A stretch of DNA of 64,000 nucleotides, from NCBI GenBank assembly GCA_965178125.1, contig OZ237743.1, positions 124,001-188,000 on the forward strand, read 5' to 3'. Under the pieces are notes generated by a model, which was given only the letters and a program-made list of their open reading frames with translations, was not told where the DNA came from and searched no databases. Position 1 is the first letter of the stretch; every line of letters starts with the position of its first letter. Source of the DNA: Bilabrum cf. latius. Its lineage: Eukaryota. Below, one piece after another: positions 28,601 through 55,400 of this stretch. The translations under genes and the position numbers were made by a program.

Positions 28601-28894
28601 AGCGAGGGACAGCAGACGGAGGCAGCGACAGAGCCGGCAACATCGCCGCCCGAGGCTGACAAGTAGGACGCAGCAGAGGGCGGTGCGATGAATCTTCAAG
28701 TGGACGATGAGGTTGATGCTGACGTTGAAGGAGCCGAGGCGGTGGATGGTGAGGAGGCGGCCCACGACGGCGATGCCGCAGGATCCGCTGGCGATGCAGC
28801 AGCAGCGGGTAGCAAGACCGGGGCTGATGAAATTGCGATCGACGGCAGCAGCGACGATGAGGAGCCGGACGATGAGGATTTCATGGATGATTAA
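25300..28894 (+). CDS. F-BAR/FCH-like N-terminal domain protein with a C-terminal SBF2-like helical domain; one frameshift at a poly-G run near 27384-27404
   Basis: FCH-like RRVDEGKQSVEDLIAFLKSRSSQE and BAR-like helices. C-terminal VYLRDLVLSHPLWQSATFWE resembles the SBF2-type motif. TAGs at 25504, 28001 and 28664. The frame changes at the G8/G11 runs. Ends at TAA 28892-28894. Confidence 0.65.
26245..26337 (+). repeat. (CAGGGG)~15 coding microsatellite (QG repeat)
   Basis: Read directly from the sequence. Confidence 0.95.
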
Positions 28895-28960
28895 AGTTGA
28901 AGCGTTCAATGACTTGCGGCTAAGTTAAATGACCACAGGCCCCAAACGCATTGGCAATGG

Positions 28961-29529
28961 CAACGTCCCCCTCCCGTGCCCCAAGCTTGGGAGGGGGGGT
29001 CCCACGCTTGGGCACCTCCGAGGAGTCCCCCGGTGCCCAAGCGTGGGGTCACGCTTGGGCACATGGTCAATTGCCCAAGCGTGGAATGAATTACCCACGC
29101 CTGGGCACAGGGAGGGGGGTAAACTTGGCATTGATTCTTGCTGTTTCTTATACTAGTAGGTTGTATATTTCTATTACTTTATATATATTCACTTCGGTGT
29201 CACGCGATGGACCAATGATTGGTAGTACTGTAGTACTACGCAAGATGTGGCAGCAAAGCTTGCCATTCAAGTCATAAGCAGAGGTCAGTTCAACTCAATC
29301 CTTCTACAGACCTCGTCCCCGGAGTATCCAACGAGCCAGAGCCCGAGCCTACGGTGGACTGGCCAACCCTCTAAGCACCCGCCTCCATGCCACGGCCCAG
29401 GGGATGCGTAGCCTAGTGGAAGACCAATTGACCATGTGCCCAAGCGTGACCCCACGCTTGGGCACCGGGGGAGGTGCCCAAGCGTGAGACCCCCACTTCC
29501 CACGCTTGGGCACGGGAGGGGGACGGTTG
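28961..29529. mobile_element. MITE/foldback-like non-coding element with ~110-bp inverted arms built from the motif TGCCCAAGCGT
   Basis: 28961-29073 is the near-perfect reverse complement of 29425-29529. About 11 copies of GCCCAAGC/GCTTGGGC occur in alternating orientation, with an AT-rich core at about 29130-29290. It lies between convergent gene ends. No clear target-site duplication is visible. Confidence 0.6.
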
Positions 29530-29782
29530 AACTGGCCCTCTGCCTTGTGATTTGTCCCGCAGGGCCTAGTAGTGCAAGTTGCTCGCGTCGATTAACTTTC
29601 TGTGCAAACTGCTAGTAAACACGCGGAAGATGCAGTTGGATATCTCCGAGGACTGCGACGCAAAAGAGTCGCGACAAGCACGTGCAACGCGGACGATCAG
29701 AATGTATGCCGGGCCCAAAGATACCTGTGGGCCAGCAGCAAACTAGAAAGGCCCAAGCGGCTCTCATGGACCGCCGGGACCT

Positions 29783-31700
29783 TCACCCTGGTGTCCCTGG
29801 ACCAGGTCCGGGCCCCGATCCACCCGCGACGGGTGGGCCGGGGCCCGGTCCGGCCTACGCGCTCCTCCTCGCCGCCTGCTCCAGCATGGCAGTCGCCCTA
29901 GCGTACTTTTCATCATGCTGAAGCAGCAGCTGGTGCGCCTGCTGCCTTGCGTGCGCCTGCACTTTCGCCATGTCCTGCGCGGTGAGCGTCCTCCCCTGCT
30001 CCCTCGCCATCTCGATGTGCTTGCGCTGCACCTGCTGCGTGGCACGCTGCAGCTGCGCGGTCGCGAAGGCGCGGGCGCCTTCCAGATCGCTGCGAGAAGG
30101 ACCGCCCCCGCCTGCACCGGGCCCTGCCCCGGGCCCCGGGCCTACCCCACCGCGGCTGGGGCTTGCCGCCGCCGCCGCACCCGAATGCGCCGTCGGGCCG
30201 GCAGACGCGCCGCGCATCCCCCCAGGGTGGGGTGCCCCCGCCGGCCCACCCCCGGACCCCCCCACCCCCCCCTGTGGCCCACCCCCAGTCGGTGGCCCAC
30301 CCCCACCCCCGGGCCCTGCCTGCCTACCTACACCTACCGCCCCTGGGCCCCCTGTTCCCCCCGGCCCGCCTCCCACGCGGACACCGCCCGGCGGGCCTGG
30401 TCCGGCAGCCGTTCCCACACCCGCCCCAGACCCAGACCCAGACCCAGACCCCGCCGGCCTCCCGCTCGGCATCACTGCATAGTACACGCAGGTGGAGTGC
30501 TTCCTCCTGTACCTGGTGGTGACCCCCTGCACCATGAGCGAGTCCTTGATCGCAGTGCAATACAGGTGGTCCACGGTGACGTGCTGCGGCCGGGGGAGGG
30601 CCACGCTTGCGGCGGTGCTCGGGTTCGGGGGGGAGTTCAGCAGGATGTTCCGCAGCTGCGGAGGCAGCTGTGGGGGCTCGTTCGAGTATGCGGCGTCGTC
30701 GAGGGCGCTGTGGCCGTAGTCCTCTTCTTCCGAATCTGCGGCAGGCGGGCAGGCGAAGGGCATGGCATGGCATGGCGCGTGTGATGGCAACGGGGTGCGC
30801 AGGCGTTCACAGATGAGGACGCAGCGCGGAGCGAGCAGAAGAGTTGGTTCAGGTGCAGACAGAATAGCAAGCGGTCAGATGGCAAGGGACACTCGTCCCA
30901 TGGCGCACCAGCTGCCAGAGAGCCCGCTCCATCGAGCTGGATCGCCACCACTGGCAGTGCTCACCTTCGGCCTCGTCGTCCTGGTCCTCATCATCGCGCT
31001 TGAAATCGGTGAGGTCAATCACGTTGTTGATATTCTATCTAGAGTCTACGCTGGTCTTTTGATCCTGGGAGAATCTCCAGTGCCCGTCCACGATGAACTT
31101 GAAATGGTGCTTGCCTCGCGGCAGCATGTGCACGTAGGTGAAATCGTTTCCGCTGCGATGCATTGGGTGCCGTCGACTCCAGCCCGTAAAGCTGCCAGTT
31201 ATTTCTACCTAGTTCCCCCCTTGCTCCCATCGAAATACAACTGGGATCAAGTCTTCCTGGCGGAATCTGGACTGGTCGTCCAGCTCTCCGTCGTCGCCCA
31301 GCATAGCTCCAGCTCCATTGCTCTGCGGCAGGGCAGATTGTCCTGAACCCCCCATACCAGGTCCATCTCCAGCGATCACCTGGCCGACAGGCTAAACGGA
31401 GCCCGGCCCGCCGCTCGGGGGGGCGCCTGGACCTCCAACCGCTGGCCCAAAGTGGCTGCAGCACGTGAATCGATAAATGGACGCCATCAAGAATTGCAAC
31501 CGAGGAACAGATCCATGAAACCAAATTGATGCGTAGCAATCAACACATACGCCAGCGCCACATCAAAGATTACTGGGAAAGCGATGCCTGTGTCATTCCA
31601 CCAGACCTGTCTCGCAGCTCCCTGGGACTCACCTATGCGGAGCCATTCCTGCGCCTAGATCACCACCTTCCCCCGCATCTCGACTACTGGATGTACCCAT
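29783..31700 (-). CDS. AMPK/SNF1 kinase beta subunit; exons 31633-31700, 30965-31455 and 29783-30735
   Basis: Myristoylation-type start MGTSSS. CBM48 domain PVVFRWEQGGN[TAG]VEITGSFTGW...HHFKFIVDGHW...NINNVI. ASC domain PPQLPPQLRNILLN...LPRPQHVTVDHLY...TRYRRKHSTCVYY. Two phase-consistent GTGAG..CAG introns and 4 in-frame TAGs. Ends at TGA 29783-29785. Confidence 0.9.
30736..30964 (-). other. Spliceosomal intron 2 of the AMPK beta gene (229 nt, GTGAG...GCAG)
   Basis: Splicing joins GAA G|AT TCG in frame between the CBM48 and ASC domains. Confidence 0.8.
31456..31632 (-). other. Spliceosomal intron 1 of the AMPK beta gene (177 nt, GTGAGT...TGCAG)
   Basis: The phase-2 junction AG|C links the MGTSSS exon to the main frame. 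Confidence 0.7.
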
Positions 31701-31977
31701 ACAGTAGAGTGGGCAAAACGCCCGCTCACAAGACTGGAGGAATCCAGCAGAACAGCCAAATGCCGCTGCCACGCAGGCAAGCACTGCGGAACCAGCCTGG
31801 CAGTGCGCGGCGTCCGGTTGCAACCAAAGAGAACGAAAATGGACCCGAAATAGGTCGCGGGTGATCATGTCAACGGAGGAAGAAGAAGAAGAAGAAAAAA
31901 AGCTGCTTCAGTTGCAGCACTAGTAACCAAATGACCCCGGACGACCCTCCTCGCCCAGCCCCCACGTGAGGATCGGA

Positions 31978-34900
31978 TCAGCCCTCCTCCTCGTCCCCCG
32001 ACTCCTCCGCAGGCCCAGCCGCCGCCGCCGAGGCCATCGTCGAGGCCGCTGCTTCCCCCTCGAGGCCGAGGATCTCCCTCGCCACCGCTTCCGTCTCCCT
32101 CTCCCGCTCCACCACTGCACGCACCTTGTCGTACCTGGGCTGGCTCAGGCGCATGATCACTTGCGACCAAGCGGGCGCGCTCGCCGGCAGACCACCCGTC
32201 TGCAGGATGTTCCGCAGCGCGGCGCCGGAGAAGCCGCTCATGAAGCTCGCCCCCAGCTCCAGAGCGTCCGCCTGGAACGTCGGCTTCTCGGACGATCGGA
32301 GCTGCCAGAAGACCACGTGAGGCATCGTCGCGTACCCCGCCGCCCGGAACGCCTCCCTCGTCGATCGGAGCAGGAGCCCTTTGCCCCCAGAGGCCACGTC
32401 CGCCTCCTTTGCGGCCGCGATGCGCGGGGCCAGCCCTGCTCGGGCCTCCTCGACCTCCATGTCGGAGAGGATCAGCAGTACCCTGGGCAGCTGCTCGGCC
32501 GTAAGGTTAGCGGCCTTGGCGCGCTCCAGCACGGCCTCCAGCGCGGCGGCGGCGTTTGTTCCCCCGGAGCACTGCGCCTGCTCCAGGGCCGTCACTCGGT
32601 CGCACACGCTTGGCATGCGGGACGGCGTCCCGGGCTCGCTGCCCTCGGGCACCTTGGCCTCGAACTCGATCCACTTGGGCTTGCCGTCGAACGCAAGCAG
32701 CTTGCCGTGCCACGCAGAAGCGGGGTCGCTGAGCTCTGAGGTCAGCAGCCCCAGGGCCATGGCGGCTGCCAGCGGCCGCCCGCCGTCCCTCGCGCCCATG
32801 GACCCGCTGATGTCCACCACGGGCAGCGCGCCCACCAGCCCAGCCCCGCCCGCCAGGTCCACCCGCCCGCTGCCGGCCTCCTCCGCTGCCCGCCGCTCCA
32901 GCACCGCGCTCCCCGCCCCCGCCCCTCCCGCGGCAGGTCCGTCAGCTCCCCCCTCCGCCCCGCCCGCCGCCTCGACCCTCTTCCTCTCCCTCTTGGCCGC
33001 AGCCTCCTTGGCCCCCTCCACCATGTCGACCCACTGGGCCTCCTGCACGGGCACCTCGGCTCGCACGTCGACGGGGATACCCTCCGACCGGAGCATGGTC
33101 ACTGTCGCTTCATCCATAAAGGGGTTCCGCAGGTAGCGCTCCACGAGCTCGTGCGGCTGCACGGTGCTCCCCTTGAGCCTGTCCTTGGCCTTGCGGGCCC
33201 CGCCCTTCTCCCTGGTGTCCTTGATCGCCTCCGCCATCCGCTGCTTGAGGTCCTGCCGGGCGATGTCGAAGGATGGCTTGCGGGTGTGCCCGCCGCCCAC
33301 CTCCCTCTTGGCGTTCTGCAGAGCCCCCTGGTACACCTTGAGTGCCCTGCCGGGGATGCAGGACGGGTCGATCTCGTCCCAACGCTGCTGCGACATCAAC
33401 GACTCCACCACGCCAGAAGCGGCCCGCAGGCCGGTCAGCAGCCAGCGGTACCGCATCAAGGACTGGCGCAGGCTGCCCTCCAGTCGTGCCCCGAGGGCGT
33501 CTGCCCCTTCAGCTCCCGCCGCAGCGGCATCACCGCCAGCCGCAGCCCCCCTGCGCTCCGACTCCAGAGCCAGGGCCTCGAGGCGAGCCGCCCGGCCCGT
33601 CAGCACGCGCGCCACCCTCTCGTGCTCCTGCCGGATCCGCCCCCTGGCCTGTCCCTCCAGCGCGCGCGCCTCCTCCTCGTCCAGCTCCTGCCTCAAGGCA
33701 ACCCTGGTGGCGTCCTCCTCCGCCTCCTTGGTCGCGCGGGCCCGGGCCTTGTCAGCCTGCTGCTTGAGGGCCACGGCGCGCTTCCGGAGAGCGGCTGGAA
33801 GCACCACCCCGGGGGCCGCACCCGCCGCCCTCACCCCCGCCACCGCCAGCGCATCCTCCAGGCTGCTGCCCGCTGCCTGGCAGGCGGCCGCGCTGAGCCT
33901 GGCCACAGGTGGCAGGGCCCCAGCCGCACCCGCACCCGCACCGGCACCGGCACCGGCACCCGCGCCCGGCGTGCATCCCTCGCGCACCACCGCAGCCTTC
34001 TCCTCCTCGCTCCCCCGCGCCTCGATCGCCGCCCCCGCCTCCTGCAGGTCAGCGCCCGCGATGGGGAACAGACGCAGGGCCAGGGCCAGGGCCAGCTCCG
34101 ACTCCCGGTCCGTCGCTGACCCCTGCGTGGGGGCCCACTTCCCCGCGAGGCTCACCCCCAGCTTGCCGCCCTTGCCCTCTGCCCTCGAGGCCTTACCCCC
34201 GGCCCCGCCCTCGGCCCCGGATCCAGCCCCGGCCCCCGACTCGGGAGCTGGTCGCAAGTGCTCCACCCCCGTAGCAGCAGCAGCAGCTCCCGAAGGTGCT
34301 GCTGTGGAGGCACTGCCTCCCGCCGCCCCAGCACCAGCACCAGCACCAGCACCAGCACCAGCCCCAGCCAGAGCGGCAGCAGCGACGAGGAACCGACCCG
34401 CCTGCCGCAGGGTCATGCCCGCGTACTTGCTGCGCTGTTCCCTGGCCTCGTCCGCCGCCCGGGCCTCCTCCATGTCGTTCGACACGTCCACGTCGCCCAT
34501 GGCCTCCCGCTTGGCACCCGCCAGCTCCCTGCCCTTCAGCTTCCTCCTCTTGCTCGCCGCCCCGAGAGCAACCTCCTCCCGCTCCGAGTCCTCCTCCTTC
34601 ACGCCCTGGCGGCGTAGGAACGCGGCCAGCCGGATAGCGTCCCGCCGCAAAGCCCGCGCCATCTCCGCCTCGGCGCCCTCTGCAAGTCCCACCAGAGACA
34701 CGCGGTCGTACGAGCCCGCCGTCTCCGCGTCTACCCGCCCCGCCGACGCGAGGGCCGATGCGGAACCGGTGGCGCCGCGCAAAGACCCGGACCCCGAGCC
34801 CGCGTCGTCCCTCCCCCGCGCGGCCGTCCGCGCGGCGCGCACCGCAATGCCGTGCAGCTGGCGAAGGTTCCTCCAGGACGCGTACCGCGGTACGAGCCGA

Positions 34901-35804: not shown

Positions 35805-37686
35805 ATGCGATGCAATCGCGGATGCCGTACTCGAAGCAAAGCAGGATTCAAAAGTTGGCAGCGACTCTGCGGCACCGGTCAGCTTAGATCGAAGGCAGCC
35901 TTGTTTAGTAGGGTAGAAAGTATCGTGCACGACTCCAAGGTCCCAGTTTTCCCTCGAAGCGCACGAGCAGTCCCTCGTGCTGGTGCCAAGGGCTGCCTCG
36001 AAATCTCCCCTACAGGTGAGTGCAGTCTACTGAAACTGTTGGTATCGGCATTGTATAGATAAGCTTGCATCCGTGGTCTCTGGCTGTTCACGTCATGCTC
36101 GCGGCGGTGCAACAGCTCCCTCGCAGGTCAAACGATCGAACGTAGAAGCGCTGCTACGAGTAGACATTAAGGATCCGAACAAGTACCAGGCCGATAAGAA
36201 TCTGTTGGTATTCTGCTTGAAGAATCCCGTCAAGTTTGGGAAACAGGCCCTGCGGGTCGTCGTGGCCTCGTTCCAGCAGCAGCGCGGCAAGGCTTCTTCC
36301 AAATCCGCCTCGGCCTCGTCCTCGAAGGCTGCCTCGGGGGCCGCCGCCGGTGCTGGTGCCGGCAGCGATGCCGCCTTCTCTCTCTCCCGCCCGATCCAAG
36401 CGGGGGCCATGCTCGGGTCGTGGTCAGACCCGGCCACCGCTGCGGCCGAGGCCGGCCGGCTGGTGGAGGCAGCCGCGGCAGGGGGGGGGTCGGACGCTTC
36501 TGCCGGGGTGGCGCTCCTGGAGCGGTGGTGCGAGGGGGCCCTGGGTCCCATCGCGCGGACCAGCCCCGCTGATTTCAGCAGCGCGCTGACCACGCAGCAG
36601 CGCGTGCCCTGCATCAGCGGGGTGCAGGAAGGTTCCCTGTGGCTGTGCAAGGCGGGGGTGCTGTTCGGTCCCACTCGGCCCGTGTTCGTGCCCATGGGGA
36701 GGCTCGCGGGGATGGGCATAAGGACGAGGGGGGGCACCGCGAGGTTTCTTGACGTGATCGTGGGGGAGCATCCTGGGGACTGGGAACAGGGGGGGGCAGG
36801 GGGGGGAAACGCCGGGAGCAGCGGCAAGGGCAAAGGAGGCAGCGAGGGCGGGGGCGAGGGCAAAGGGGAGGCAGTCAAGGCGCGCAGGCACGAATTTTCC
36901 CAGGTCCCTGTGGACGAGAAGAGCAGGCTGGCAGAGTTCATCAACGGCGTTAAGAAATGGGTGAAGGCAGCCAGGGCGGCGCAAGGCGCAAGTGCAGGCG
37001 CAGGCGCTGCCAGCGGGGCCAAGCAGTCGTCCAGCGGTGGTGCACGGGGCGGGGATGGCAGTGTGGACGGAGAAGAGGGCGGGGCAAACCGTCAGGAAGA
37101 GCAGGAGGAGGAAGAAGAGGACGATGAGGACGAGGACGAGGATGAGGATGAGGATGACGACAGCGATTTCGATGAAGGGGCAGCGGCCCGGGAGGAGGCC
37201 AGGGAGAGGAGGAGGGACAGGCGGGTGATGCAGCAGCTGGGGGAGGGCAAGGTGCTCGAGGCGGGGGGGGGTGAAGAGGACGAGGGGGGGAGTGATAGCG
37301 ATAGCGGTAGTGATAGTGATAGTGATAGTGATAGCAGCAGCGATGGGGGTGTCGATGCAAGTGGTGGTGGAGGTGCGACAAGCAGCGCTGCGCTTGGTCG
37401 CAAGCGGCCCCGCTCGGTGGACCTGACCGGAGGAGATGCCGAGCAGGGAGTGGGGTCGGCCGGAGCATCGTCCCGGGCAGGTACGAGTGCAGATGGGTAG
37501 GAGATTGATATCGAAGACTCCGATGAGGAGGAGGAGGAGGAGGAGGAGGAGGAGGAGGAGGAGGATGATGAGGAAGAAGAGGACGGTGTGGTGGAGGACA
37601 AGGATGGCAGCGGGGGAGCTCCGGCACCCAAGAAGGCTCGGGTGCAGGAGTTGGAGGAGTCCAGCGATTCAGACGATGGCGTGTGA
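35805..37686 (+). CDS. Rtt106/SSRP1-like PH-domain histone chaperone with an acidic tail; 5' exon structure uncertain (possible intron 36016-36058)
   Basis: VPCISGVQEGSLWLCKAGVLFGPTRPVFVP...FLDVIV...HEFSQVPVDE matches the Rtt106/FACT PH-fold pattern. Long D/E tracts. TAG 37498 is read through to TGA 37684-37686. Confidence 0.65.
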
Positions 37687-37950
37687 TTGACAGTAACCAC
37701 CCAAGATAGGTAGGCGCACGAGTTCCCCTCCCGCACCCACGCTGTGTGTTCTCCGCGCACGCATGATGCAGCGTGACGACTGCAATCCGAGTCGTGATTT
37801 CTTCGATGACTGTATTGTAGCGCGTACGATACAGTTTCTCATTAATTCTAGCGAATATAGCTAGTTACTACCGTGAGCCTTACCTAGCCTGCTTAGCTCG
37901 AAGCAAGTGCAGTAGGTTGCGCCAAATTGTGCTCGCTCACGATTTGTTGC

Positions 37951-40466
37951 ATGCTCTCAATCCTTCAGCAGCTGGGCCTGCCCTTAGTAGTAGCAAGCAA
38001 GGCAATTGGGATGATTTCGATCATAATTGCAGCTGTTGCGTTCACCCCTGGCGCTTATGCACACACCCATGGCAGCTTCTGCGGGCATGAGGCCTTCATG
38101 CGAGAGGTCAGTCGGAACCGGTCCGCGATGGGGCTGAACCCAAACCCAGTTGAGAGGGGCCACTTAAACCCAATGAAACATCCGCCGCATACACGCGGGC
38201 TGTAGTCGCAGCAGTGGCGCCCCCTGCGCATCCATCTGCACTATTCTGACGGCGTGGACGACCTTGACGCCACAACGCGAGCATTCTTCAAGCAGCAGCT
38301 GGTGGAGCCGGCGGCAGCCAGACTCTAGGAACTTCTTCGAGTGCGACAGCGCGAAAACGACGACGTATTCTTCCTGGGGCGCTCGTGCTCTAGGTGGACG
38401 GGCGGTGCCAGGTAGGGAGAGTGCGCGCAGGTGTCTACGGATGCGCAGACTTGCAATGGAGCAACCATCCCCGAGCAGTACTTCGGCGAAACTAAGTACT
38501 ACCCGATCGAAGGGGGTGAATTTGTGGAGCGGACCATCCCGGCGGGGGGTGCGGGGGCTCCCAACGCGGACTACATTCTGATTGTCACGGCCCAGAACAC
38601 GCAGCAGTGCGGGGGCGCCACGCTGGGGTACGCAGGTGCGTGTATATCAGACGACATTTCTAGGCCAGTGGCGGGGCGCTACAACCATTGCCCCACTAAG
38701 ATCGACACGGACCCAGCCGAGGCAAGAGGGCAGATGATGGTGGCCGTCCACGAGATGTGAGCTTTCGTCCCATCCTCCAGGCCCTACAACGCCCCATATT
38801 GCCCCACATCGGCTCTGTCTTACACCCACAGCACGAGTCTCCGTGCTGTACCGCCCATTTCACTGCCCCACCCCCACACCCCCACCAGTCCCCCGCCCCA
38901 CCTGTCCCCCACCGCAGCATGCACGCGCTGGGCTTCAGCTCTCTCAACATGGAGCAGTTCATAAACCCCGACACCCTGGAGCCATTGTTCCCCGCCGACA
39001 GCAGAGAGACCATCCAGACGTCCCAGTGCGGGTCCCAGACCAAGTTCCCTGCCTCTTTCGTTGAGTGGAGCAGCGAGCGGGGACAGTCCGGCTGCAGCAG
39101 CATCGAGGACGCCGCCCCTGACAGGGAGGGATGCACCCAGCGGCTGGTTCTGCCCAAGGTCAAGCAAGCCGCTAGGGAGTGGTTCGCCTGCAACGAGATC
39201 AACGGGCCCGAGCTCGAGAACCAGGACACGTCCTGCGGGCTGGTGGCCTCCCACTGGGAGCAGAGGTCCATGTTCCCCGACGCGATGACCCCGACCAAGA
39301 CCGGGCACGACATCGTCACCCCCATCACGCTGGCTTTCTTCGAGGATTCCGGGTGGTACAAGGCAAACTACGACGCGGTGCAGGCCCAGCCAGGCAGGGA
39401 GTGGGGCTCGCAGGCGGGCTGCGACTTTGCCGTGAGGAAGAGGGGCATCTACGCCCCCGACCCGTCGCAGCCCAGCGCACTCGTCAGCGTGACCACCCAG
39501 TCGTCGCTGCGGCAGAACGAGCCCTTCTTCTGCACCGAACGTTCGTCAGAGAACCTCTGCACGATGGACCTCCGGGGGTTTGGCCAGTGCCAGATCGTGC
39601 AGCACGGCAGCATACCCTCGCAATACCAGTACTTTAGCGATGACCCCAACAAGGGGGGCAGGTTTGCGCAGATGGACTACCTGCCAGACATTGCCTCCTT
39701 CTACACGTGCACGGACGACACGGCTGACTTCAGGCAGGAAGGTGACAAGGGCATGTACTTCGGCTCGCAGCACAGCTCGGCATGCTTCCGAGCCACGCTC
39801 AAGCACTCCAGCCTCAGCTCCTTCGATGCTTCTGTTGGGTGCTACAGGTACGAATGCAACACCACGGTCTCTGACTCTCCCGTGCTGCGCGTGCAGGCTC
39901 TGACTCCGAATGGCTCGGCCGTCGCCGGGGAGGCCCACTGCAGGGTAGGGGAGGGGGGGCAGGACAAGAGCATCCCGGGGATGGAGGGAGTCGTGACTTG
40001 TCATGAGCCGGAGCTGCTGTGCGGGTCCAATGCGCTGCCCAGTCCGCTGCCCAGCGCGAGCCCCTCCCCTGCTCCCGGCAGCGGCGGTGATCGCGGGGGC
40101 GGAGGCGGCGGCGATGACGGTGAGAGTGGAGGGGGCGGGGGTGGCGCGACGGTGTTCCTGGCCGTGTTTGGCAGTCTCCTGCTGGTGGCCACAGTGGCAG
40201 GAGGTGCCTGGCTTCTCCTCACGGCGCAGCAAGGCACCATGGTGGGGCAGGCGGCGGAGATGCTTGGCTTGGAGGTGCAGTCGGCGAGCGAGGCGAAGCC
40301 CGGCGCTGCGGCTGCACCTGCAGCGGCGGTGGCTGGCGAGGGGAAGGCAGCTGGCGCTGGCTCCGGCCCCGCGGCTGCACCTGCCAGCGTAGGAGGGACC
40401 GGGGGAGCGGCGCCAGCGAGCGGATCGGACTCCGCGAGGGCAGTTGCACCTGCTGAACAAGCGTAA
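37951..40466 (+). CDS. Leishmanolysin/GP63-like zinc metalloprotease (peptidase M8), membrane anchored; intron 38757-38917
   Basis: Hydrophobic N-terminus, a CGH pro-peptide Cys, and RGL[TAG]SQQWRPLRIH. RPVAG; HEIMHALGF formed after splicing; ELEN; SHWEQR; Met-turn DAMTP; ITLAFFEDSGWY; C-terminal TM helix. Three TAGs (38203, 38326, 38413). Ends at TAA 40464-40466. The start may be ATG 38011. Confidence 0.9.
38757..38917 (+). other. Spliceosomal intron (161 nt, GTGAG...CGCAG) inside the HExxH motif
   Basis: CAC GAG AT|C ATG CAC restores HEIMH and joins the two frames. Confidence 0.9.
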
Positions 40467-40816
40467 TCTGCTAAATAGGCGTGCTGGCTGGGCTGTGTGC
40501 TATATAGACCTTGTTACTAGCAGGCCCTGGAGCCGGTGGTGAGTAGCGAACACTTTGGCTGAATGCCGAACCGGTAGCACTAGGACGAGATGCGCCCGGA
40601 GTGACGCACTCCTTAAATTGTATAGAAAGAGGTGTGGTAGCAAAGCGTGAGGGTTTGCGATTTGTTTTGTTTCAGAATGAAGCGCCCCGGATGAAAGATG
40701 CCGCGTTCCAGTTCCAAGGTTCCGGTCGGCGGCGTTGCGTGCATTTGGACATGCCTGCTTGGATCCACCCCGTTCTAGCTTTTACGTGTCTCGCAGAGAA
40801 CCTCTCGCGAGTAAAC

Positions 40817-43800: not shown

Positions 43801-46800
43801 GCAGGAAGCACTCAAGAGCATGCAGAAAGACGTGGATCGACAGGTGCGGGAGCTGGGGGAGAAAATGGACGCGGATGCAGCTGCGCGAGACAAGTCGGCC
43901 GAGGCGGATGTGCATCGCAAGCTGCTGGATTCTGCCACAGACATGGTGAAGCAGGGCTGCGACATTGTGCAGCAGGAACAGCGGCTCATGACATGCGTGC
44001 TGGTGCGGCACGAGGCAGACATCCTGCACGGAAACGTGAACGTGTCGAAGCTCGCGCTGGCCGATGCCACCTTCTTGCACGAGCAAGGCAACGACGTGTC
44101 GATCGTGGGAGGGTGCGGTGTCTCGCTCAAAGACATTGCAACCGACTCCATTGAGCTCCGGGAGCAACTGGGACCCGCCACTGCAGCCATCGCCACAGAC
44201 CTCGACGGTCTCCCGCTTAGCACTCCAGCCGCAAAGGATGGTATCGTGGGAAGCCGATTGGTCGCAAGCGCGGGTGCATTCCCCTTCCCGCTAGATGCCC
44301 TGGCATGGGCCGATGGTGGCATCACGATATCCGGAGACCGCACACGCGGGCCCAGTGGCGCTGGTAATGCTGATTTTGACCCTGCGGCGAGCGCCACTTC
44401 GGGCTCATGGGACGCAGCTACCGCCAAATCAGCGGACTCGTCGGTTGCAGCTGGCAGCGCAAGCACGGCGGCGTCCGATGCCGTGTCGGTGGGCGATCGG
44501 ACCACCGGTTCGCTTGAATCATTGCTGCATGATGACCATATCGATTGGGAGGAAGTTAGCCCTGTGGACGTATTCCGCTCGCTGGTATTTGCCATAGTAG
44601 GTGCGCCGGAGCTGGCTGCTGGCGAGTTTGCTGATGAGGTCGTGGCTGCAATACGAGAGGCTGCGAAGGAATGCTGCGTTGGCGACGAGATGGTCGCACC
44701 GCTGTCAGAGCCTGCGGACGTGTTTGGGCTGACTCCGATGCACCATGCAGCTGCGTGCGGGTCTATTTCGGGAGTTCGTGCCCTGCTGTCTATGGGCGTG
44801 GCTGTCGATCCGGTCGATGCAGACGGTGCAACCCCCTTACTGCTCGCTGTCGGGGCTCAGGATCAGCCAGAGGACCACGTGCTCGCCGTCATGGACGCGC
44901 TGCTCCGGGCTGGTGCCGACCCCAACACGCGTCTACCCAGTGGAATATCGCCCCTGTACATAGCTGCGCAGTCGGCCGAGACAGCGCGGTGCAACTTGCT
45001 GCTGGACCACAAGGCAGACCCCAACGTGCACCCGCCGGATTCAGACATGACTCCCTTGCACTGTGCTGCCGTTCATGGCATGAACGCACTCGTAGACCGC
45101 CTCTTGTCGCTCGGGGCGCGGCCCGACCAGCCTCGTCGAGACGACGGCATGACTCCGCTGCTGCTGGCGGCAGCCCACTGCCGTCCAGCCACCATCCGTG
45201 TCATTCTCGCTCGCAGCCCGGGCTCTCTCGCGGACATTGCTGCGGGGTAGAGGAGCAATGCGCTACACGCGCTCGCGGCCAAAGCTGGTGACACCAGCGC
45301 AGTAACGCAGGTACGGTGCATGGAGACTGCCCGCTCTGTTTTGGGCGCGGTAACAGAGCCTGGGCAGGTGGCGTAGCTGCTTGCTGCCAAGGATGCAGAC
45401 GGCTTGACTCCAGCCGTAATTGCGTGCCGCCGCGGGCTCGTCGAGCTGGCGAAAGACCTATCAGCACACGATCATTCCTAGGCTGCTGCCCAGGCAATCG
45501 CCGCGGAAGCTGCCAAGCTGGGCCTTCCACGGGCTTTCCAGAGCCACTCTGCACGGAGTTTGCTTCCGCCCGAGCAGATGCGCCGCGCTCTGCTTACAGG
45601 AGCATTCAGCGGAAAGGCCGAGGCAGCCGAGGCAATCTTCCGTGGAGTCAATCCTGCACAAGTCCCTCTGCTGCTGCGAGCCGCGGCAGTGCACCGCAAG
45701 GGCATGCTCCTGCACCGAATCATCGCCCGTGCCAGGAGCCTGAGGCACCGTCTCGAGCTGGGTGCTATTTGCAACGACATTGCCATCGTGCGAGAGGCGA
45801 CTGTCGATGCCAAGTGCAGCTCCAGAATGGTGGTGGATGCATTCGCAATTGCCCTGAAACACCGATCGCGCAGCGTTGCCAAATATCTGCAACACCATGC
45901 TGCTCTGGCCATTCAGTCGGATTTCAAGACCCAGTCGATGCCGATCGTCCGTGCCGCACTCCAGTCCAGGAGCACGGCGATGTGGGACATCATGACCCGC
46001 GTGGCCGACCCGTGCTGCCCACTGGACGAATAGGGCAGAACAGCGGCCCATCTGGCTATCAGTGCCGGCTGCATCCCGCTGTTCACGCGTGCGGTGAACG
46101 CTGGCTGTTCTTCGCTGGGGGCTGACGGCACTTCTACCACTCCGCTGCAGCTGGCAGTTGACAGCGATGAGCCCGAGCTCATCGCTGCCGTGTGGTGCGC
46201 ATTTCCCACGCAGGTCGAAATCACCGCGGGCAATGATGGGAGCAACGACTTGGGCGCGGCAGATCCGGAATCAGGTGGCAAACCAGCAGAGAAAATCGGA
46301 GCAGCATCTGGGGCCGGTGCAAGCTCGGCCGCACCGGCGAAGTCAGCTGCAGGCGTGGAAGTCGGCAATGACGGGAGCGACAGAAAAAATAGTGGTGCCC
46401 GTGCTGCACAGCGTCCTCGCTTATTCCACCTGCGCGGGTACCACCTCGCCGATGCCCTGATTCGCGCCCACGGCAAACAGGCAACAAGGGCACACAGGCT
46501 GCTGCAACGACTGCTGAAGACCACTTGGCTGGAGGCATCCGCCAAGGGTGTGGTGCATGACGTGCAAGATGGTGTGCAGCAAGCATTCGACCAGTCGGTC
46601 GATTCACTGTGGGGGGCCGGCGTCCGAGTCACGCAGAAGCTGCTAGAGGGAGTGCCCTCGCCGGCTTTGATGAGACGCCTGGCCGAGAATGGTCGTGGGA
46701 AGGTGGTGCTCGACACGTTCATGGCTCTTGTGCCTACTAGTGCCCCTCTGTCCCCGATCGCCAGTGCGTTGCTTAACGCAGCTATCGAAGGCGCGATTGA

Positions 46801-49800
46801 CAAGGTGCAGATTGGCGTAATCGCGCAGCTGCACCGTTGCCTGCACCCGGGGGTCGTGCGCGCACTCAGTGATGCTGCCAAGCGGCATGCTTGGGTCGGC
46901 AGGGCACTCGCGCTGAACTCCAGCGTGCTTGCTGCAGCGGCGGAGGGCAAGGCTGCTGGCTTCGTGGCTGCCATTCGGGCCCTTCCTGCCGGCGCTCAGC
47001 TGACGGGAGGGGGGATTCAAGACGAGAACGAGTCCGGCTTGCTGGATGCCATGATCAAGCACGACTCGATCGCGCTCCTGGATCGCCTCCCAAGAAAGTA
47101 CCCCCTCGGATCCGCTGATTACTCGGATGTCAGCGCATGGTTCCAGCTGCTGGGAAAGAAGGACTCGGAATCAAAAATGTGGGTGCAGGCGCTGTCCAAC
47201 GCGCGGTCCAAGGCGGCAGTGGCAGCGGCCCTGCTGCAGTCCACTGCTCAAGGTACCGTGCTGCACGTGGCATCGAAGCGGCCAGGAGGCGTTGACGCGA
47301 TTGAAACCATGCTGGACGTGCTTGCCAGCGCGCCGTCAGCCAAAGTGGCGGGGCACGGGCCGCACGTGGGTGGCAATGTGATGCATGTTGCCGCTGCCGT
47401 TCTTCCGGGGGCTGCCCCTTTGCAAGATTTTCTGCAGAAGCTGCGTCGCTCCCTTGGTCGACGGGAGGACGTGCTTGCTGGGCTGCTCCAGCAGCGAGAC
47501 TGCAGCGGAAAGACGCCGCTGCACTACACCTGTGAGCACTCGCACGACCCCCGCACTGTGCAGCTGATGGTCGAGGCCGGCGCAAGCCCCATGCGAGCCT
47601 GACGGCACCGGCAGCACGCCGCTCATGACTGCAATCCGCTCCGGATCGGACCGGGTCGCGGCAGAGGTCATTCGCCTGGCACGGTAGGAGAGCCCCGTGA
47701 GTCTATCGTACGAAGATGCGACGGGAGCGACTGCGTTTTCTCTAGCTGCGGAGCACGCCTCTGTCACCTTGCTGAGGCTACTAGCACCTTCTGTCCCAAT
47801 GGATGTGCGCAATGCCTTTGACAGCATCGGGCGGAGCGCTGTCATGCTGGCCGCAGAGTCCGGCCGAGAAGACGTGCTGCAGGTGCTGGTGGAGGACCTC
47901 AAGTGCGACCCAAGCCTTCAGACTCCCGGACGAGTGCAGCTTCCCGTTCGAAACGCCAATGAAGACGACACAGCTCGCCGCATGCTCCCGGATGAAGAGG
48001 CCGGGAGCACGGCGCTGCACGTTGCGGCGCGCGCCGGATCCACATCATGCGTGCGAATGTTGTGTCAAATGGGTCTATCTATGTCTGCAAAGAACAGCAT
48101 AGAGGAGACCCCTGCCTACCTGCTGGTCCGTTCTGGACGACACGACGCCGTCGACATCCTGGTGGAGCTGGTGGGCCTCCCAGCTCGGGCTAGCCAATCC
48201 AGGCCAGGCAGTGCAGGCATCGCATCGGCGGGCGCAGGACCAAATATTGGTAAAGAAGATGTTTCGAGCTCAGTCATGCCCCTCGAGTTGTTCTCCAGCT
48301 GCATGGAAGCTGCAGCACACGCGGACGAAGGCCCCCTCATACTGCAGCTAGTTGAAATCGGTGTTGACCCGAATTCAGTTGCAACATTCGCGTTCGGCGG
48401 AAGCCCGCTGCACACCGCGGCGTAGCGGGGCAGCTGCAACGCAATCACTGCGCTGCTGTGCGCAGGGGCAGATCCTAGCATCCGAGACAAGCACGGTCGC
48501 ACGCCCCTTCACGTTGCAGCCGCGGCTGGGAAGCTCGGGGCCGCTCGCCTGCTGCTTGCAGAGCCTGGTCAGTGGGAAGACATTGACACCGAGGCGGGCC
48601 ACGCCGTGGATCACGCAACCGCCTTGGGTCTCGCGGTCAAGAGCAGGTCCGTTGGGATCGTTGCCCTGCTTCTCTCCGCGGGGGCCTCCCCGGACGTGCA
48701 CGACTCGTCCGGCAAGACGCCTCTATAGCACCTCGCCTTGGCCGCTGCCAGTGGAGTCGCATCAAGCGACGAAATAGACATGATGGCACTGCTAGAGGAG
48801 GCATCGAAGGTATTGGCTCCTTATGGCGACTCTGTGTCTGCCAAAGGGGCAGATGCAAGGACGATGACAAGCGCTGGTGAAGGAGCACGACCAGGTTTAG
48901 GGGCTGATTCAGTAGAGCCTGCTTCAGCAATTGTATCAGCTGGCGCACCAGCTGCAGTTTCTGTTCTATCTAACGTACCACCAGTCGTGATGCAGCGGAT
49001 CAAGCACGCTGAGAAACAACCAATGGTGCTGCAATGCATGGAGGCACGAGCAAGTGCTGGCAGTCATCTCGCGCCTTCGGCTGCATCGACCAACGCGGCA
49101 ATCGCAGGGTCCGACTTCCGAAGGTTTCGTGGATCCGCGATTGCGACAAAAGGGGAATCGGTCAGCCCAGTAAAGTATATTGCATCTAGCGCATTGGTCC
49201 CCACGGAATCATCAGCATCCTCCTCATCCCCGAAACCATCGGCAAGTTCGCCCATGGCCCGGGACTCTCTGCTAGGCCGTGCCTTGGGCAGCCCGCGCTC
49301 ACCCCCGGGGCCAACAGGTGAAGCGATGGCAAGTCCTCGATCTCACTACGATACCGGGCCGTCCCGCATCCACCAAGAGATAGCGGAGGGACTGGCCGAA
49401 AGCGAGTGTCCTTTCAGTGATGTGCTGCCCGTGGCCGCCGCACGGTGGCCACCCCTGGCACTGGGGCACAGCCCGAGGGCCTGGGGCATGCTCGTAGGCC
49501 GACTGGCAGCCACCGCAGGATCAAGTGGGGTGGACATGCTGTGCAGTCGCACTGCCAAGGACGGGGCCGTAGAAGACTTGTTGAGTGTGGGGCAGCACCT
49601 GCTGGACCTTGCCTCGATTCTGTAGTACGGTCGATCTCTGGAATGCGAACGGTTGCTAAAGGAAGCGACTCAGGCACTAGCTGCTGTGAGATTACCGTAG
49701 CTCCCTGTCTAGGCCGCAGGGACGATGTCCCGCTCTCCACCTGTCCTTCCCCCCTTGAGCGGCAGCGGCGCCATGTCGCCCAGGACTCGAGTGGCTCCTC

Positions 49801-52313
49801 TCAAGCTGCATGGGTTGAAGGGGGCCAGGGGTGCAGCGGGGTCCTCAGGTGCAGTGCCACTAAGGAGCCTATTGGGCGTGCTGCGGGTAGAGTGGCAGCG
49901 CGCACTTGCCAGGAAATTCCCTGATCATGACCCGCGAGAAACAGCCAGTAGCTTCCGGTCGGCGACTTTGCCATACGGGCTGCCGGATGAAGCAGTGGGG
50001 CACATCTAGAGGCGCTTTCAGAGCCTGTCTAGAACAGAATCAGAGCTTGGTTCGTCTTCGAATCTCATCGATCACCTGAGGCGGCTGGGAGACGGCCTAA
50101 GGTCATGCCGAGGCATTCCAACGAATGAGGCAGAGTGGGCTGGGGCCGCAGCTCTGTTGGGCGCGCTGCGAGTGGCGGTCCGTGCTCACTTCAGGATCGT
50201 GCCATACACGACCTAGCTCTTCGCCATCCTTGGACTGCTGGATGTGCGGTCTATGGGAGGGGTATGCAAGCCAGATGGCAAGGGCTAGGATGCGGCGGGG
50301 GCAGCCTCTACATCTGCTGCGACTGGCAGCTCTGCAGGATGCAGCTCGCGGTCTGCATCCTCAAATCATGAAGACAAATAGCTGAACCCTTCGGAGGCCA
50401 GAGGTCGAATCGCAGAGATCAGGACGGGTGAAGGCAAGTCCATCACTATTGCGCTGCTCGTTGCATACTTGGGTCTCTGCGGCAGGAATGTTGACGTCAT
50501 CACGTCGTCTCAGTATCTCGCACAGCGTGACGTTGAGCAGTTCTCCGGGTTCTACCGCTCTGTCGGTTTAACTAGCGGGCACATATGCACTCATAGCCCG
50601 GCACCCCAGCAATTCGAGCCGCAGGTGTTGTACGGCACCAACACGGACTTCGAGTTTGCAGTTCTCCGTAAGATGCTGCGCTGGCCAGGGGCCGGTGTGA
50701 CGCGCACTGGTGAAGCGAGGCCAGCCGACGCAGTGGTGGTGGACGAGGTCGATAACTTGCTGCTGGACACGGCCGCTTCCCCTGCTCGGCTGGCCGCGCC
50801 CTCTGTGCACAACACCTCCTGGTGTTTCAAGCCGATATTGGAAGCAGTCCGCGCTGGAGTGCGCGAATCAGATGCGGTGCGGGCTGCGCTTACTTCCTTC
50901 ATGGGTGGCCGCATGGCCTCTGTTGCAAGGCGCTTCGAGGACTCCTAGCTGAACCAGTGGGTGCAGTCCGCTCGAGCCGCAGAACAAAAGACGCGGAACA
51001 AGGACTATGTGGTGCAGGACGGAAAGGTGGTCATTGTCGACTATTCCAATACGGGGCAGCTCAGATACGGCTCGCGCTGGTCCCAGGGGATCCACGAGTT
51101 TGTCGAAGCCAAGGAGGGCCTGGAGCCCGAATCGGCCAACCTGACTATCGCTTCGCTGGCGCACCCAAGCTTTTTCAGCAGGTATGATCTGCTGCTGGGA
51201 GTCACTGGAACCATGGGAGCGAAGGAGGAGAGGCAGGAAGTCGCGGGTGTCTATAAGTGCCTTTCGTTCGACGTTCCCACGCACAGGCCCCGCCGGCTGC
51301 GGCAGCTACCGATGGTCTTGCACGACGTCCCGACCCGCCGCGAGTTTGGACAGCGCGTGATTGAAGCTGCCAGCGCCGAAGCAGACAAGGGTCGGCCCGT
51401 GCTCGTTTTGTGCCTCTCTCTGCAAGATACGGTGCTGCTGCGCGAGCTGGCTGCAGCCGTCAGGCTGCCCAAGGTGCAGCTGCTGACCAAGGTCCAGGAC
51501 GAGGACGAGGAGCTGGTCGTGATGCGAGCCGGGGCCCCGGGGACCGTGACCATCGCTACGAATGCTGCTGGGCGAGGGACCGACATTCGACTCACACCAG
51601 AGTCTGTGGAGGCGGGGGGGCTCCACGTCATCGTCTCATTTCTTCCTGACAACCTGCGGGTGGAGGAGCAGGGTATCGGACGCGCTGGCAGGCAGGGGCA
51701 GCCGGGTACTGCCCAGCTGCTGCTTGACCTGCAGCGAGACCCCGGCGCAAGAGCTGTCACCAATGGAATGACGATGTTGCCGATGATCCGACATACTCTG
51801 GACGAACCGAAGCTGCGATCCATGCGCGATGACCACGTCAAGAGAGTGTCTGCGTATCGCAGTAAGCTGGCAGCCAAGGAAAAGGAGCGGTTTGCGGTCA
51901 TGGCTGCCTTCGAGCGAGATCTTGCGACTCTCGAGGGAGCCCAGTCATTGAGTAGCAGCGCGCAGGCTAGCAAGCAGCCAGCAGCGGCATCATCGTCTAC
52001 AGCATCCTCTGCGTCGGCCTCCACAGCTACAGCCCCGTCCACTGGGACAGCTCCAAGACTACGGCAAGTGCTTCTTTCCCAAGGGCGGGCGCTCCTTGCC
52101 GATCCCAAGCGGCTGCGCGGCGGCGCTGTGTAGGTGGTGCTGCAGCAGTGGGGCGTGCTGTTTGACGCAATTTGCGACAGCGACAGCGCTTCTGGTGGTG
52201 TGGGTGAGGATGGTGGCGCAATTAAGAAGTCGCCGGCAGCCCGCTATGAGGCTTGGCGGGCCGATTGGATCCCAGCTGCACCACAATAGTGGCTTGAAGG
52301 TTTAGCTACTTGA
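40817..52313 (+). CDS. Giant (~3,830 aa) protein: basic N-terminal domain, Gly linker, coiled coil, ankyrin repeats and a C-terminal SecA-like SF2 ATPase; one frameshift near 47587-47602
   Basis: Same-frame ORFs joined by about 18 TAGs. Ankyrin TPLH/TPLL repeats at about 44720-48730. SecA motifs PYTT[TAG]L, AEIRTGEGKS, YLAQRD, YGTN, VVDEVD, RWSQGIHEFVEAKE, GVTGT, ATNAAGRGTDI, GGLHVI and RVEEQGIGRAGRQG. Ends at TGA 52311-52313. The start may be upstream (40691 or 40751). Confidence 0.8.
41405..41511 (+). repeat. 9-bp tandem repeat (GGAAGCGGG)n encoding a GGS linker
   Basis: Read directly from the sequence. Confidence 0.9.
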
Positions 52314-52498
52314 CCGATCCACCATGAGCTGCGCAATCAATTCATGAAAAATCTTTGAATCTTTCCAAAACAAGTGTGCACCACAAGAGCAGCGTGCCCG
52401 TCACACTACACTCTGTCTCAGAGGCTCCACACGCTGCTAACCAAAATCGTGCGTGCCTCTTTCCCTCGCACCACAGCGGCAAGTACCTGCTTCCCAGC

Positions 52499-55400
52499 TT
52501 ACGCGCGCGCAGGGGGCGCCAGCGCGCGCTGTAGCTCCCGAATGGACACGAAGCTGTCTGCATCCGCGTCTGCAGCTCTCAGCACCTCCACAACTTCGGC
52601 GTCCGGCATGGGCAGATTCAGTCTGCCCACAAGATCTGGGAGGTCTGCCACGAGCAAGCGACCTGCCTTGCTGACGTCTAGTTGGCGGAACAGCTCGTCC
52701 GGGTCCCAGCCCTTTGCTCGTAGGGCATTTCTCACCTTCTGTACTCGCTGCTCACTGTCATGCAGCGCTCTTGAGTCCCGAACGGTAAGCAGCTTGGCCA
52801 TGGGTGAGCCAACCCACTCGACCGCCCCGGTCCGACGACGCAGGCACAGGCGCTCGAAGAACAGTTTCCGATCAGGGGTTGGAACCTTGCCGATCTGCTC
52901 TAGCGCGGCCGCAGCTGCTTCATCTGGCAAGTGCAAGTCGCAGTTGATGAATTTCCCGAGAGCGATGCGGACGTCGGAGCCGGGTGCTTTGGTGACCTTC
53001 GGCCTGCCGGCTGCATCTATGAGGGTGGAAATGGGGATGTTCCAGAGCTGTAGCTGCCCAAACCGCGAGTCCCCAGTTGCAGAAAGCTTGCAATCGAGGT
53101 GAATGGCTCGCCTTACGGCCTCTGCCTCGGCCAGCGAAAGGATGACCATGGGTGTCGGTGTCCCGAGACCCTGCCCGCCTGCAGCTGCCGTCTCGCGCGA
53201 GTCGTCGAAGGTCATGCCTACTCTGGCAATCTTGACGCTGTATTGCGGCAGGTTTGTGGCCTCCTGCAACGTGAATCGTTCAGTGAGCAGCATCCCTGGT
53301 GCGAGAGCGGAGAGCTTGGGCGCGTCGTCATCCACCTTCCAAGTCGATGCCTGAAAGGCAGAGCCGCCCAATGCCTCGCGGAGGGTCTTCTCCGCACCTT
53401 GAGCATCCCGTCTTGCTACGGCCGACTGGATGGCGGAGATTTTGGTCCTCAGCTCATCGATGCTCCAGGGCTTTGGCTCCGGTAGCTCCATGTCTGGCCG
53501 CTTGTACCAGTTCACCTGCGAATATGGCACAGCAAGCAAATAATGTAAAAGGGACAAAAATGCAGCTAGCGTTGCATTGGGGTCGAGACTAGCAAATAGG
53601 TGTGCAGTGTATATGCGTAAGATGAGCAGGAAGACCAATCCATCTCTGTCTCACATACTACAGCTCCTTCTCCTGGTCCTGCTCTCGCTCTGCCTCTTGC
53701 AGCACTTCCTGCTCCTGCTCCTACTCCTGGTCGAAGTTGTCCGCCCGCTTCGCGGCCGTGCCACCCCCACTGGTCCCATGCGCGTTGCGCTCTAGCACCG
53801 CGTCAATCCTTCGCTCCGCTATGCCTCCCCTCACGAAACCATAGAGCTCATCTCGAGCCCAGGACGCGAGAGAGACCAGAGATGCCGACTCCTGACCAGT
53901 ACCGCCTGCGCCGGCCTCCGTCGGAAGCCTCGGGGTAAAGTCCACACTCTCCCTGAAGACTGCCACCCTCTGCAGCACCTCCCGGTACTGCAGCACCAAC
54001 CCCTGCTTTGCGTACTGCCGCCCCTGGATCCCATACATCTCCAACAGGTCGTCAAAGGCCGCCCGCCTCCACACGTTCGACAAGTCCTGCTTGCACAGCT
54101 GCTGGAACTGCAAGCTCTCGTGCTCGATGCTATTGCGCACCAGCCAGCCCATCACGCTCCGGATCTTGGGATCACGAGCGAAAGCTTCCGCGCCAACTGC
54201 CTGCTTTACCAGCCCCTGCACCTCTGGCACCACACACAACCGGATGGTCTGTCCCTTTGCAATGCCTCTCATGCGCCAGGCCGCCTGAGCGGCGTCCCTG
54301 AATGTGCAGTCCTTGCCAAGGGTGAGCACGGCGCGAGCATTGGGAGCCTGCTTGATGTCTGTGCCTGTCGTGTGCGCGTGAGAGTATATGCAGAAGCGGC
54401 GATCCTTGGGCAGGCCTGCCTCGTCCAAAGGCACCGGCTCAGCTTTGCCCCGAACCAGTACCATCTTGTGGTTGTCCTCGTCCATGTAGACGCAGCCCTG
54501 CATCGTTTGCAGCCCCACCCGTAGCATGTAGGCCGCCGCCTGCCTGTTATTCATCCCGGTAATCAGCGCGCCGGCGTCGATGAGAGCGTGGAAAGGAGGG
54601 TGCGCATTCGCGATCGATTTCAGCAGGCCAGGCACGGTCCACTCGCGACCGGGAATCAGCTCGTCGCTGGAGTCCCACACCACTTGCGGGTCCGTCAGCA
54701 CGTCGAGGAACCTTCCCTCCGAACCCGGCTCGAAGTCGCACTCGCCCAGGTCCAGGGGAGCCAGGGCAGAGGGCGTTCCCGAGAAGCCGTACCTGGCGCC
54801 AAAGAGGCAGTCGGACCCTAGGTCCACGCCAGAAGAGGAAAACTTGGCCTCCTTGTGGGTAGTCACCTCGGGAAACACGTATTTTACCATCCACATGCGG
54901 ACCATGGGCCCGAACAACCGGAACAGCCGGCACGCATCGGCCATCTGTTCCGGATCTGACGGCTGCATGAACTCCAGGGGCGCGATATCTGGAGGACCCA
55001 GCTGCGCCTCCGAATAGGCAGCTTCTGAGATTCCGAGCGCTTCAGCACTCGGAAGTTGGATCGCAGTCTTGGCTTTGGCCTAGTCCAAGCTGGCCGTCCT
55101 CTGCCTGACTCGGGCAGCCTCAATCGCCCGCCAAGCCGCGCCGTACCTAGACAGCCACACCGTCCTTGCATCATCTGTCCAGTGGCCAAACTCGATCCGA
55201 GAGGGTCTCTGGCGGTGTGGCCCACTTTCGCACCCCATTTGAAACCTCTGGTGCTAGATGATCCGCGCCACGTGCCTGGGCATGAGCCCCTCATTGAGGT
55301 AGGCGGCTGTTGTGATCCCGATGAGGCAGTCGGGCTGAGCGAAGGAAGACATCTCGGAGGGGACGTCCTTCCCCACGAATGGCACGGCTGTCTTTAACCT

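Follow-up and report, generated by a model that had tools for sequence, protein, structure and literature searches.

The stretch analysed here is a window of 64,000 nucleotides (64 kb) from Bilabrum cf. latius (assembly GCA_965178125.1, contig OZ237743.1, positions 124,001 to 188,000 of the forward strand), in which we examined how the three stop triplets are used. Its GC content is ~62% overall, ranging from 57 to 73% per 2 kb, and it carries the genes and open reading frames (ORFs) referred to below as A to M (Table 1). When TAG is treated as a stop, as in the standard bacterial or nuclear stop set, the longest ORF spans 1047 amino acids (aa). Treating TAG as sense instead yields ORFs of 4324, 3514, 2373, 1652 and 1562 aa, containing 27, 35, 8, 8 and 13 TAG codons, respectively. 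The Pfam domains detected in the window ORFs are eukaryotic and include CRT-like, purple acid phosphatase, AMPK-beta, leishmanolysin, DUF2828/DUF7788, DUF3638/DUF3645 (with an EF-hand) and combined ankyrin (Ank) and SecA-like domains. Contigs of the sequencing runs X5, X6 and X7 show GT..AG splice joints, which are missing from the DNA-like run X1; the window is therefore part of an expressed, intron-poor nuclear genome. Thus, we are dealing with nuclear DNA of a GC-rich, intron-poor eukaryote.

Stop triplets were counted by frame in 14 coding segments that together comprise 55,362 nucleotides (nt) and 18,454 codons. TAG occurs 95, 114 and 92 times in frames 0, +1 and +2, respectively, and hence shows no depletion in the coding frame relative to the other two. 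The corresponding counts are 3, 48 and 46 for TAA and 9, 317 and 345 for TGA, and the in-frame copies of both triplets are last codons without exception. A preliminary description of this DNA had proposed that UAG is decoupled from UAA, listing twelve stop coordinates and reporting no in-frame TAA in the coding frames traced; each of these coordinates proved correct on the sequence, no internal TAA was found in the 18,454 codons, and the decoupling itself is borne out within the window. Among the 13 ORF ends, ten are TGA, three are TAA and none is TAG; no ORF needs TAG as a stop, as all of them reach TGA or TAA. TAG makes up ~11% of the glutamine codons (95 TAG versus 761 CAA plus CAG). We therefore regard it as very likely that, in this window, UAG is a sense codon for glutamine and UAA and UGA are the terminators, a codon table that we take to be NCBI table 15.

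The ciliate and diplomonad code (NCBI table 6) shares UAG = Gln with the window and additionally reads UAA as glutamine, and a code of this type might apply here if TAA were simply too rare under GC bias and the three TAA ends were due to chance. Consistent with this possibility, TAA is the rarest triplet in the window (155 copies on the forward and 133 on the reverse strand, versus 390 and 416 for TAG) and the genome is GC-rich. However, A-ending codons are not avoided to a comparable degree: the A-ending share is 0.193 for CAA/(CAA+CAG), 0.245 for the GAA/GAG pair and 0.205 for the AAA/AAG pair. Based on the CAA share of the glutamine pair, ~23 internal TAA codons would be expected if TAA encoded glutamine, whereas none was observed (Poisson P ~1e-10). 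Moreover, TAA is frequent out of frame, but in frame it is confined to terminal positions. In-frame UAA at glutamine positions, the hallmark of table 6, is absent from the coding segments of the window, where three ORFs end in TAA instead.

The TAA ends of genes F, J and M also look real in their own right, because homology comes as close as 2 residues to one of them and 6 residues to another, and reading through the TAA would add only 2 (28892), 32 (40464) and 27 (52499) codons. In gene F, an in-frame TGA follows two codons after the TAA, the coding score drops from 0.60 before to -0.27 after it, indicating non-coding usage downstream of 28892, and the match to the homolog P0144 extends to query residue 468 of 474. 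In gene M, the alignment of the final exon (52502-53515) extends to its residue 336 of 338; it reaches residue 3937 of 4015 in P0002 and residue 4097 of 4139 in P0003 from Cafeteria, in both cases within the C-terminal region. A spliced X5 contig extends 122 nt beyond the gene M TAA and stops at 52377, and the X5 contig of the convergent neighbour, ORF L, ends 22 nt after its TGA; both are weak hints from one run. The stop-to-stop frame of gene M (53454-63998) encodes 3514 aa with 35 TAG and no TAA, one of the TAG triplets (53589-53591) being intronic. In gene J, the next non-TAG stop lies 32 codons further on, and an X5 contig (39215-40696) spans the TAA unspliced; the tail of this protein is of low complexity, so its end does not lend itself to a homology test, and a search of the Protein Data Bank with leishmanolysin exon 1 gave only chance matches to laccases. 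The preliminary description had further stated that AT-richer DNA follows each TAA. This holds at 40464 and 52499, where the GC content of the 150 nt before and after the stop falls from 0.75 to 0.56 and from 0.66 to 0.53, but not at 28892 (0.63 and 0.62). Taken together, the end of homology at two of the TAA codons, the short extensions and the in-frame counts make a code with both UAA and UAG as glutamine very unlikely.

Comparison with homologs indicates that the amino acid read at TAG is glutamine. The near-invariant alignment columns that contain TAG are all glutamine columns, with Q in 63 of 64 homologs for the SecA-like motif, in 6 of 6 for the DUF3638 domain and in 11 of 12 for the site ahead of the RGRIAEIRTGEGKS motif, in agreement with a passing remark of the preliminary description that UAG stands for glutamine. 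For the SecA-like motif, 120 homologs were examined, of which 55 were too weak when aligned without gaps and one lacked the anchor motif, leaving 64 to be scored. Over those 25 of the 39 TAG columns in which three or more homolog residues were available, BLOSUM62 sums favour Q as the best fit (13.0), followed by K (5.9), E (2.7), S (-2.4) and L (-38.1). TAG might instead be sense for another amino acid, such as Lys, Glu, Leu or Ser (the last two being its meanings in the rhizarian exLh and in Scotinosphaera, respectively), and it is true that K and E come next after Q in this tally, that K and R are each the commonest residue in 7 of the 25 columns, and that a repeat column in gene E, with F in 10 of 12 copies, points to a hydrophobic residue. 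Given that all near-invariant columns are Q and that L and S score negatively, we consider such an assignment highly improbable. At a fourth TAG column the residues are polar (R in 31, Q in 20, K in 17 and E in 13 of 108), the TAG in the alignment with PfCRT falls on a variable N position, and the TAG column of the purple acid phosphatase varies among N, K, E, A, G, R, S and V. We take the non-glutamine columns to be ordinary substitutions at variable or degenerate positions.

In the region 36001-56000, 27 of the 28 in-frame TAG codons lie in pieces of X5 contigs without any difference from the window, and five in-frame TAG codons are located on X5 contigs that bear splice joints. None of the 11 base differences listed in the contigs touches a TAG codon. 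TAG is therefore not edited away, since it persists unchanged in spliced transcript contigs, which come from runs of other studies. Together with the colinearity of homology across thousands of residues and the contrast between 95 in-frame TAG codons and the lack of internal TAA or TGA in the 18,454 codons, this renders it scarcely credible that the organism uses the standard code and that the TAG codons stem from pseudogenes, RNA editing or mis-assembly. The sequence is not flawless, as at least one frame break occurs in the G-run at 27384-27404 (see below), and to that extent an artefact has something in its favour.

The TGA ends bear on a further possibility, namely that UAG is ambiguous, being read as glutamine internally and as a terminator near some 3' ends, as in Condylostoma and karyorelict ciliates. 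Two of the 13 ORFs do have a TAG within their last 10 codons (six codons from the end in ORF C and eight in ORF L), and termination at the TAG of ORF C is compatible with the window data. However, no ORF requires a TAG stop, and two late TAG codons among 13 ORFs are not unusual at an estimated 0.5-1% TAG per codon. In addition, the late TAG of ORF L (52287-52289) is spanned by the alignment with P0009, and the C-terminal lengths match: both proteins continue for five residues beyond the end of the alignment (2221 of 2226 in P0009; 1576 of 1581 in the query). We consider an ambiguous UAG unlikely.

Proteins of relatives provide a separate line of evidence. P0140, the predicted protein of a close relative (83% identical to the query stretch), breaks off directly before a glutamine column in gene F, and the more distant P0141, P0171 and P0172 (55-59% identity) end at the same column. 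The position is occupied by CAG in the window (27869-27871) and by Q in P0144, P0145, P0149 and P0151. The simplest reading of these protein sequences would be that the relatives carry a TAG here, which standard-code gene finders called as a stop. Gene F also contains a frame change, which maps to two adjacent G-runs and is probably a run-length error or a polymorphism. Two other observations in this context were set aside. A second +1 site at TGA 27466 was dismissed, as P0140 shows no interruption at this point and the change of frame could be traced to the runs G8 and G11; this TGA would then not mark a gene end. The shared octamer TGACGGCA was given no weight, because it occurs six times on the two strands where ~2.6 copies would be expected, and because the codon pair GAC-GGC is frequent in coding sequence.

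Several points weigh against the reading of UAG as glutamine with UAA and UGA as the stops. It is based on 13 ORF ends in one 64-kb window, and the count is partly circular, because TAA had itself served to define the ends of the counted ORFs. For this reason, we added a flank test that does not depend on ORF boundaries, in which coding-like codon usage on both flanks was seen for 0 of 288 TAA, 24 of 806 TAG and 1 of 1468 TGA triplets (any frame, both strands); the test is insensitive and flags about one quarter of the in-frame TAG codons. Most TAG columns are variable, so that Q ranks first in only 5 of the 25. One DUF3638 TAG column has A in 5 of 6 homologs, and at position x of the gene E repeat VWVL-x-L, ten copies have F, one has A and one has TAG. 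ORF C has its TAG six codons ahead of the TGA and no homolog to show read-through. The DNA of the relatives that P0140 and P0141 come from was not found in metagenome scans. Finally, the tRNA and eRF1 components of the mechanism proposed next are borrowed from other systems.

The most likely mechanism, by analogy with those systems, would combine a glutamine tRNA with a CUA anticodon and an eRF1 that does not act on UAG. UAG would be read by tRNA-Gln(CUA), one base change away from tRNA-Gln(CUG), which would be unable to pair with UAA; a tRNA with a UUA anticodon would be missing from the organism; and the action of eRF1 would be lost or weakened on UAG and kept on UAA and UGA. As set out by Panek et al., only a CUA anticodon reads UAG without also reading UAA, and a single eRF1 normally recognises all three stops (PMC5304391, Panek et al. 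2017). Since one eRF1 reads all stops, reassignment of UAG entails either an altered eRF1 specificity or effective out-competition of the factor. Within the window, no credible tRNA was found (Rfam at the gathering threshold gave 0 matches, and ARAGORN a single call), and eRF1 was not among the Pfam domains of the window proteins. The ARAGORN call, a tRNA-Thr(GGT) at 21543-21629, is doubtful, as it lies inside gene E and has no backing from Rfam.

According to the preliminary description, the organism needs an eRF1 with a specificity like that of bacterial RF2, a demand that goes further than the precedents do. The eRF1 of the rhizarian exLh is reported to show no obvious change in the GTS, NIKS or YxCxxxF motifs and only an L69A-type substitution, and the Iotanema eRF1 carries T32G in GTS (PMC5304391). 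Because the eRF1 changes in these two lineages can be subtle, an RF2-like eRF1 is better treated as a prediction than as a necessity. Bacterial RF2-only systems and phage code 15 (TAG = Gln) share the codon table, and their release at UAA and UGA only offers an analogy. In bacteria, this state results from the loss of RF1, whereas in a eukaryote the lone eRF1 must change its specificity or be out-competed (PMC5304391).

The novelty implied by the preliminary description was likewise overstated, as UAG-only reassignment with UAA kept has been described in several lineages: these include the rhizarian exLh (Leu), Iotanema (Gln) and Scotinosphaera (Ser), as well as reassignment to Gln in Protocruzia tuzeti and, twice, in phyllopharyngean ciliates (PMC11687900). 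The fornicate Iotanema spirale has the same assignments as the window, with UAG = Gln and UAA and UGA as stops (PMC5304391), but the lineages are unrelated, and among named organisms the best homolog in the present analysis comes from Cafeteria roenbergensis. The phyllopharyngeans and Protocruzia tuzeti also read UAG alone as Gln and keep UAA, with several independent origins reported (PMC11687900). They are, however, ciliates, whereas the genes of the present GC-rich contig are giant and poor in introns, and no ciliate affinity is seen in their homologs. In exLh and Scotinosphaera, UAG is similarly decoupled from a UAA that remains a stop, but the amino acid differs (L and S score -38.1 and -2.4 here, versus 13.0 for Q). 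No report of a nuclear UAG code in stramenopiles, bicosoecids or Bigyra was found in the full texts searched, which include few subscription journals and no supplements. Thus, this rare UAG = Gln code is known from several other eukaryotes and seemingly unreported for the present lineage.

The two ORFs K (40481-47602) and L (47625-52313) look like one Ank-SecA-like gene with a +1 frame change at or near GCC-TGA-C. From 47568 onwards no stop interrupts the +1 frame, which carries on the broken-off ankyrin repeat. The homolog P0009 (a single ORF of 2226 aa) stays colinear here, without loss or gain of a residue, reading ...GADVMVS-DGSG... where the window has ...GASPMRA-[TGA]-DGTG.... Contigs of the DNA-like run X1 and of the transcript runs X5 and X6 cover 47597-47603 without gaps or a joint and agree with the window. 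Stop-codon frameshifting is widespread in Euplotes. The site has the same form as the +1 shift site of yeast OAZ1, GCG-UGA-C, as given in the excerpt of a recent article (PMC12719033). No sign of a stimulatory structure was seen downstream, the fold of 47594-47700 having a z-score of +1.21. The break could reflect an antizyme/OAZ1-like programmed shift, a fresh frameshift mutation or the presence of two products. The reading as a programmed shift is weakened by three further points: the site is the only example, the data would be met equally well by a 1-nt indel located somewhere within 47568-47602, and the second apparent +1 case, in gene F, was resolved as a problem of G-run length. We therefore put forward GCC-TGA-C as a candidate for programmed +1 frameshifting only tentatively, and on balance doubt it. 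The broader proposal that an undescribed clade, formed by this organism and at least two uncultured relatives whose predicted proteins stop at a conserved Gln, has remodelled termination as a whole, combining a full reassignment of UAG to Gln that arose independently of ciliates, fornicates and rhizarians with an obligatory antizyme-like +1 shift at GCC-UGA-C that yields an Ank-SecA-like fusion of ~3,900 aa is rather unlikely as a whole. Another apparent +1 relation, between the two AMPK-beta ORFs of gene G, turned out to be an intron and not a frameshift.

Table 1. Coordinates of gene ends, introns, informative TAG codons and frame changes in the 64-kb window (position 1 is its first letter).
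Feature	Position	Strand	Support or remark
TGA stop, gene A (2-4960, 1652 aa, 8 in-frame TAG)	4958..4960	+	GC 0.57 before, 0.33 downstream
TGA stop, CRT-like transporter gene B	8148..8150	+	Pfam; codon verified
TGA stop, ORF C (8454-9179)	8454..8456	-	Codon verified
TGA stop, purple acid phosphatase gene D	11096..11098	+	C-terminus matches homolog ends
Gene E, 4324-aa repeat protein, 27 in-frame TAG, 0 TAA	11737..24711	-	TGA at 11737-11739
G8 + G11 runs, frame change of gene F	27384..27404	+	P0140 reads through shorter version
TAA stop, gene F (BAR-like / conserved C-terminal domain protein, 25165-28894)	28892..28894	+	Codon verified
TGA stop, AMPK-beta-like gene G (exons about 30852-31499, 29783-30790)	29783..29785	-	AMPKBI; AMPK1_CBM E 1.2e-30 in upstream exon
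TGA stop, gene H (DUF2828/DUF7788)	31978..31980	-	Pfam; codon verified
TGA stop, gene I (acidic-tailed protein)	37684..37686	+	Codon verified
Intron, GT..AG, 161 nt, gene J	38757..38917	+	Joint 38756>38918 in X5
TAA stop, leishmanolysin-like gene J (exons 37972?-38756, 38918-40466)	40464..40466	+	Codon verified; Peptidase_M8 E 5.5e-28
Intron, GT..AG, 150 nt, 5' part of ORF K	40647..40796	+	X5 joint, one side just 22 letters
GCC-TGA-C at end of ORF K, +1 frame (ORF L) takes over	47597..47603	+	P0009 colinearity; contig coverage
TGA closing ORF K (40481-47602, 2373 aa, 8 TAG), outside the earlier list	47600..47602	+	May not be true gene end
TAG in SecA-like motif PYTT-TAG-LFAILGLL	50214..50216	+	Q in 63/64 scorable homologs
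TAG seven residues ahead of RGRIAEIRTGEGKS motif	50379..50381	+	Q in 11/12 aligned homologs
TGA stop, Ank-SecA-like ORF L (47625-52313, 1562 aa, 13 in-frame TAG)	52311..52313	+	Codon verified
TAA stop, gene M (DUF3638/DUF3645 giant protein, EF-hand tail)	52499..52501	- (TTA on +)	Codon verified
Intron, GT..AG, 139 nt, gene M, DUF3638 exon to EF-hand exon	53516..53654	-	Joint in X5, X6, X7
Gene M main exon, open at window edge	53655..63998	-	34 TAG
TAG at invariant Gln column of DUF3638 domain, WLLRRA-TAG-VEV	56874..56876	-	Q in 6/6 homologs

Some of these genes have features of their own. The protein encoded by gene E contains about a dozen near-identical FG-GAP-like repeats of ~62 aa each (GAVWVLFLRSDGTVKGHQKISDTQGGFTGQL...); after them come a long region that looks extracellular and a C-terminus with several membrane passes. 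The intron of gene J (38755-38919 with its flanking letters) interrupts the catalytic HExxH motif: exon 1 closes with ...VAVHE, the next codon is split between the exons, and exon 2 resumes with MHALGF. The best named relatives of the SecA-like ATPase in ORF L are 'SecA'-annotated proteins from Legionella, Chlamydiae and other intracellular bacteria, with 36-44% identity; unnamed, eukaryote-like Ank-SecA proteins are further relatives. The Ank-SecA-like ATPase may represent an old gene transfer or an effector-like family.

As for the affinity of the organism, the only named match among the best DUF3638 matches is from Cafeteria roenbergensis (38% identity), and the purple acid phosphatase matches are weak and mixed, including green algae, a diatom and other stramenopiles. 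No ciliate or metamonad affinity was seen among the homologs of the window genes. Near-identical sequence is present in runs (X1-X7) from three studies that carry three different organism labels, a small share of it in a run labelled 'algae metagenome'; the organism may thus be an accompanying species in cultures of others.

Gene prediction under the standard code breaks up the genes of this organism, shortening the longest ORF from 4324 to 1047 aa. Public proteins of its relatives, such as P0140 and P0141, appear to be cut at TAG in the same way, and annotation of the clade needs the right code table. Each independent origin of such a code is a natural experiment on how a lone eRF1 comes to ignore one stop and how the codon passes to a new tRNA(CUA). 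Many TAG sites suited to proteomics and ribosome profiling would be available in a lineage that combines high GC and few introns with giant ORFs.

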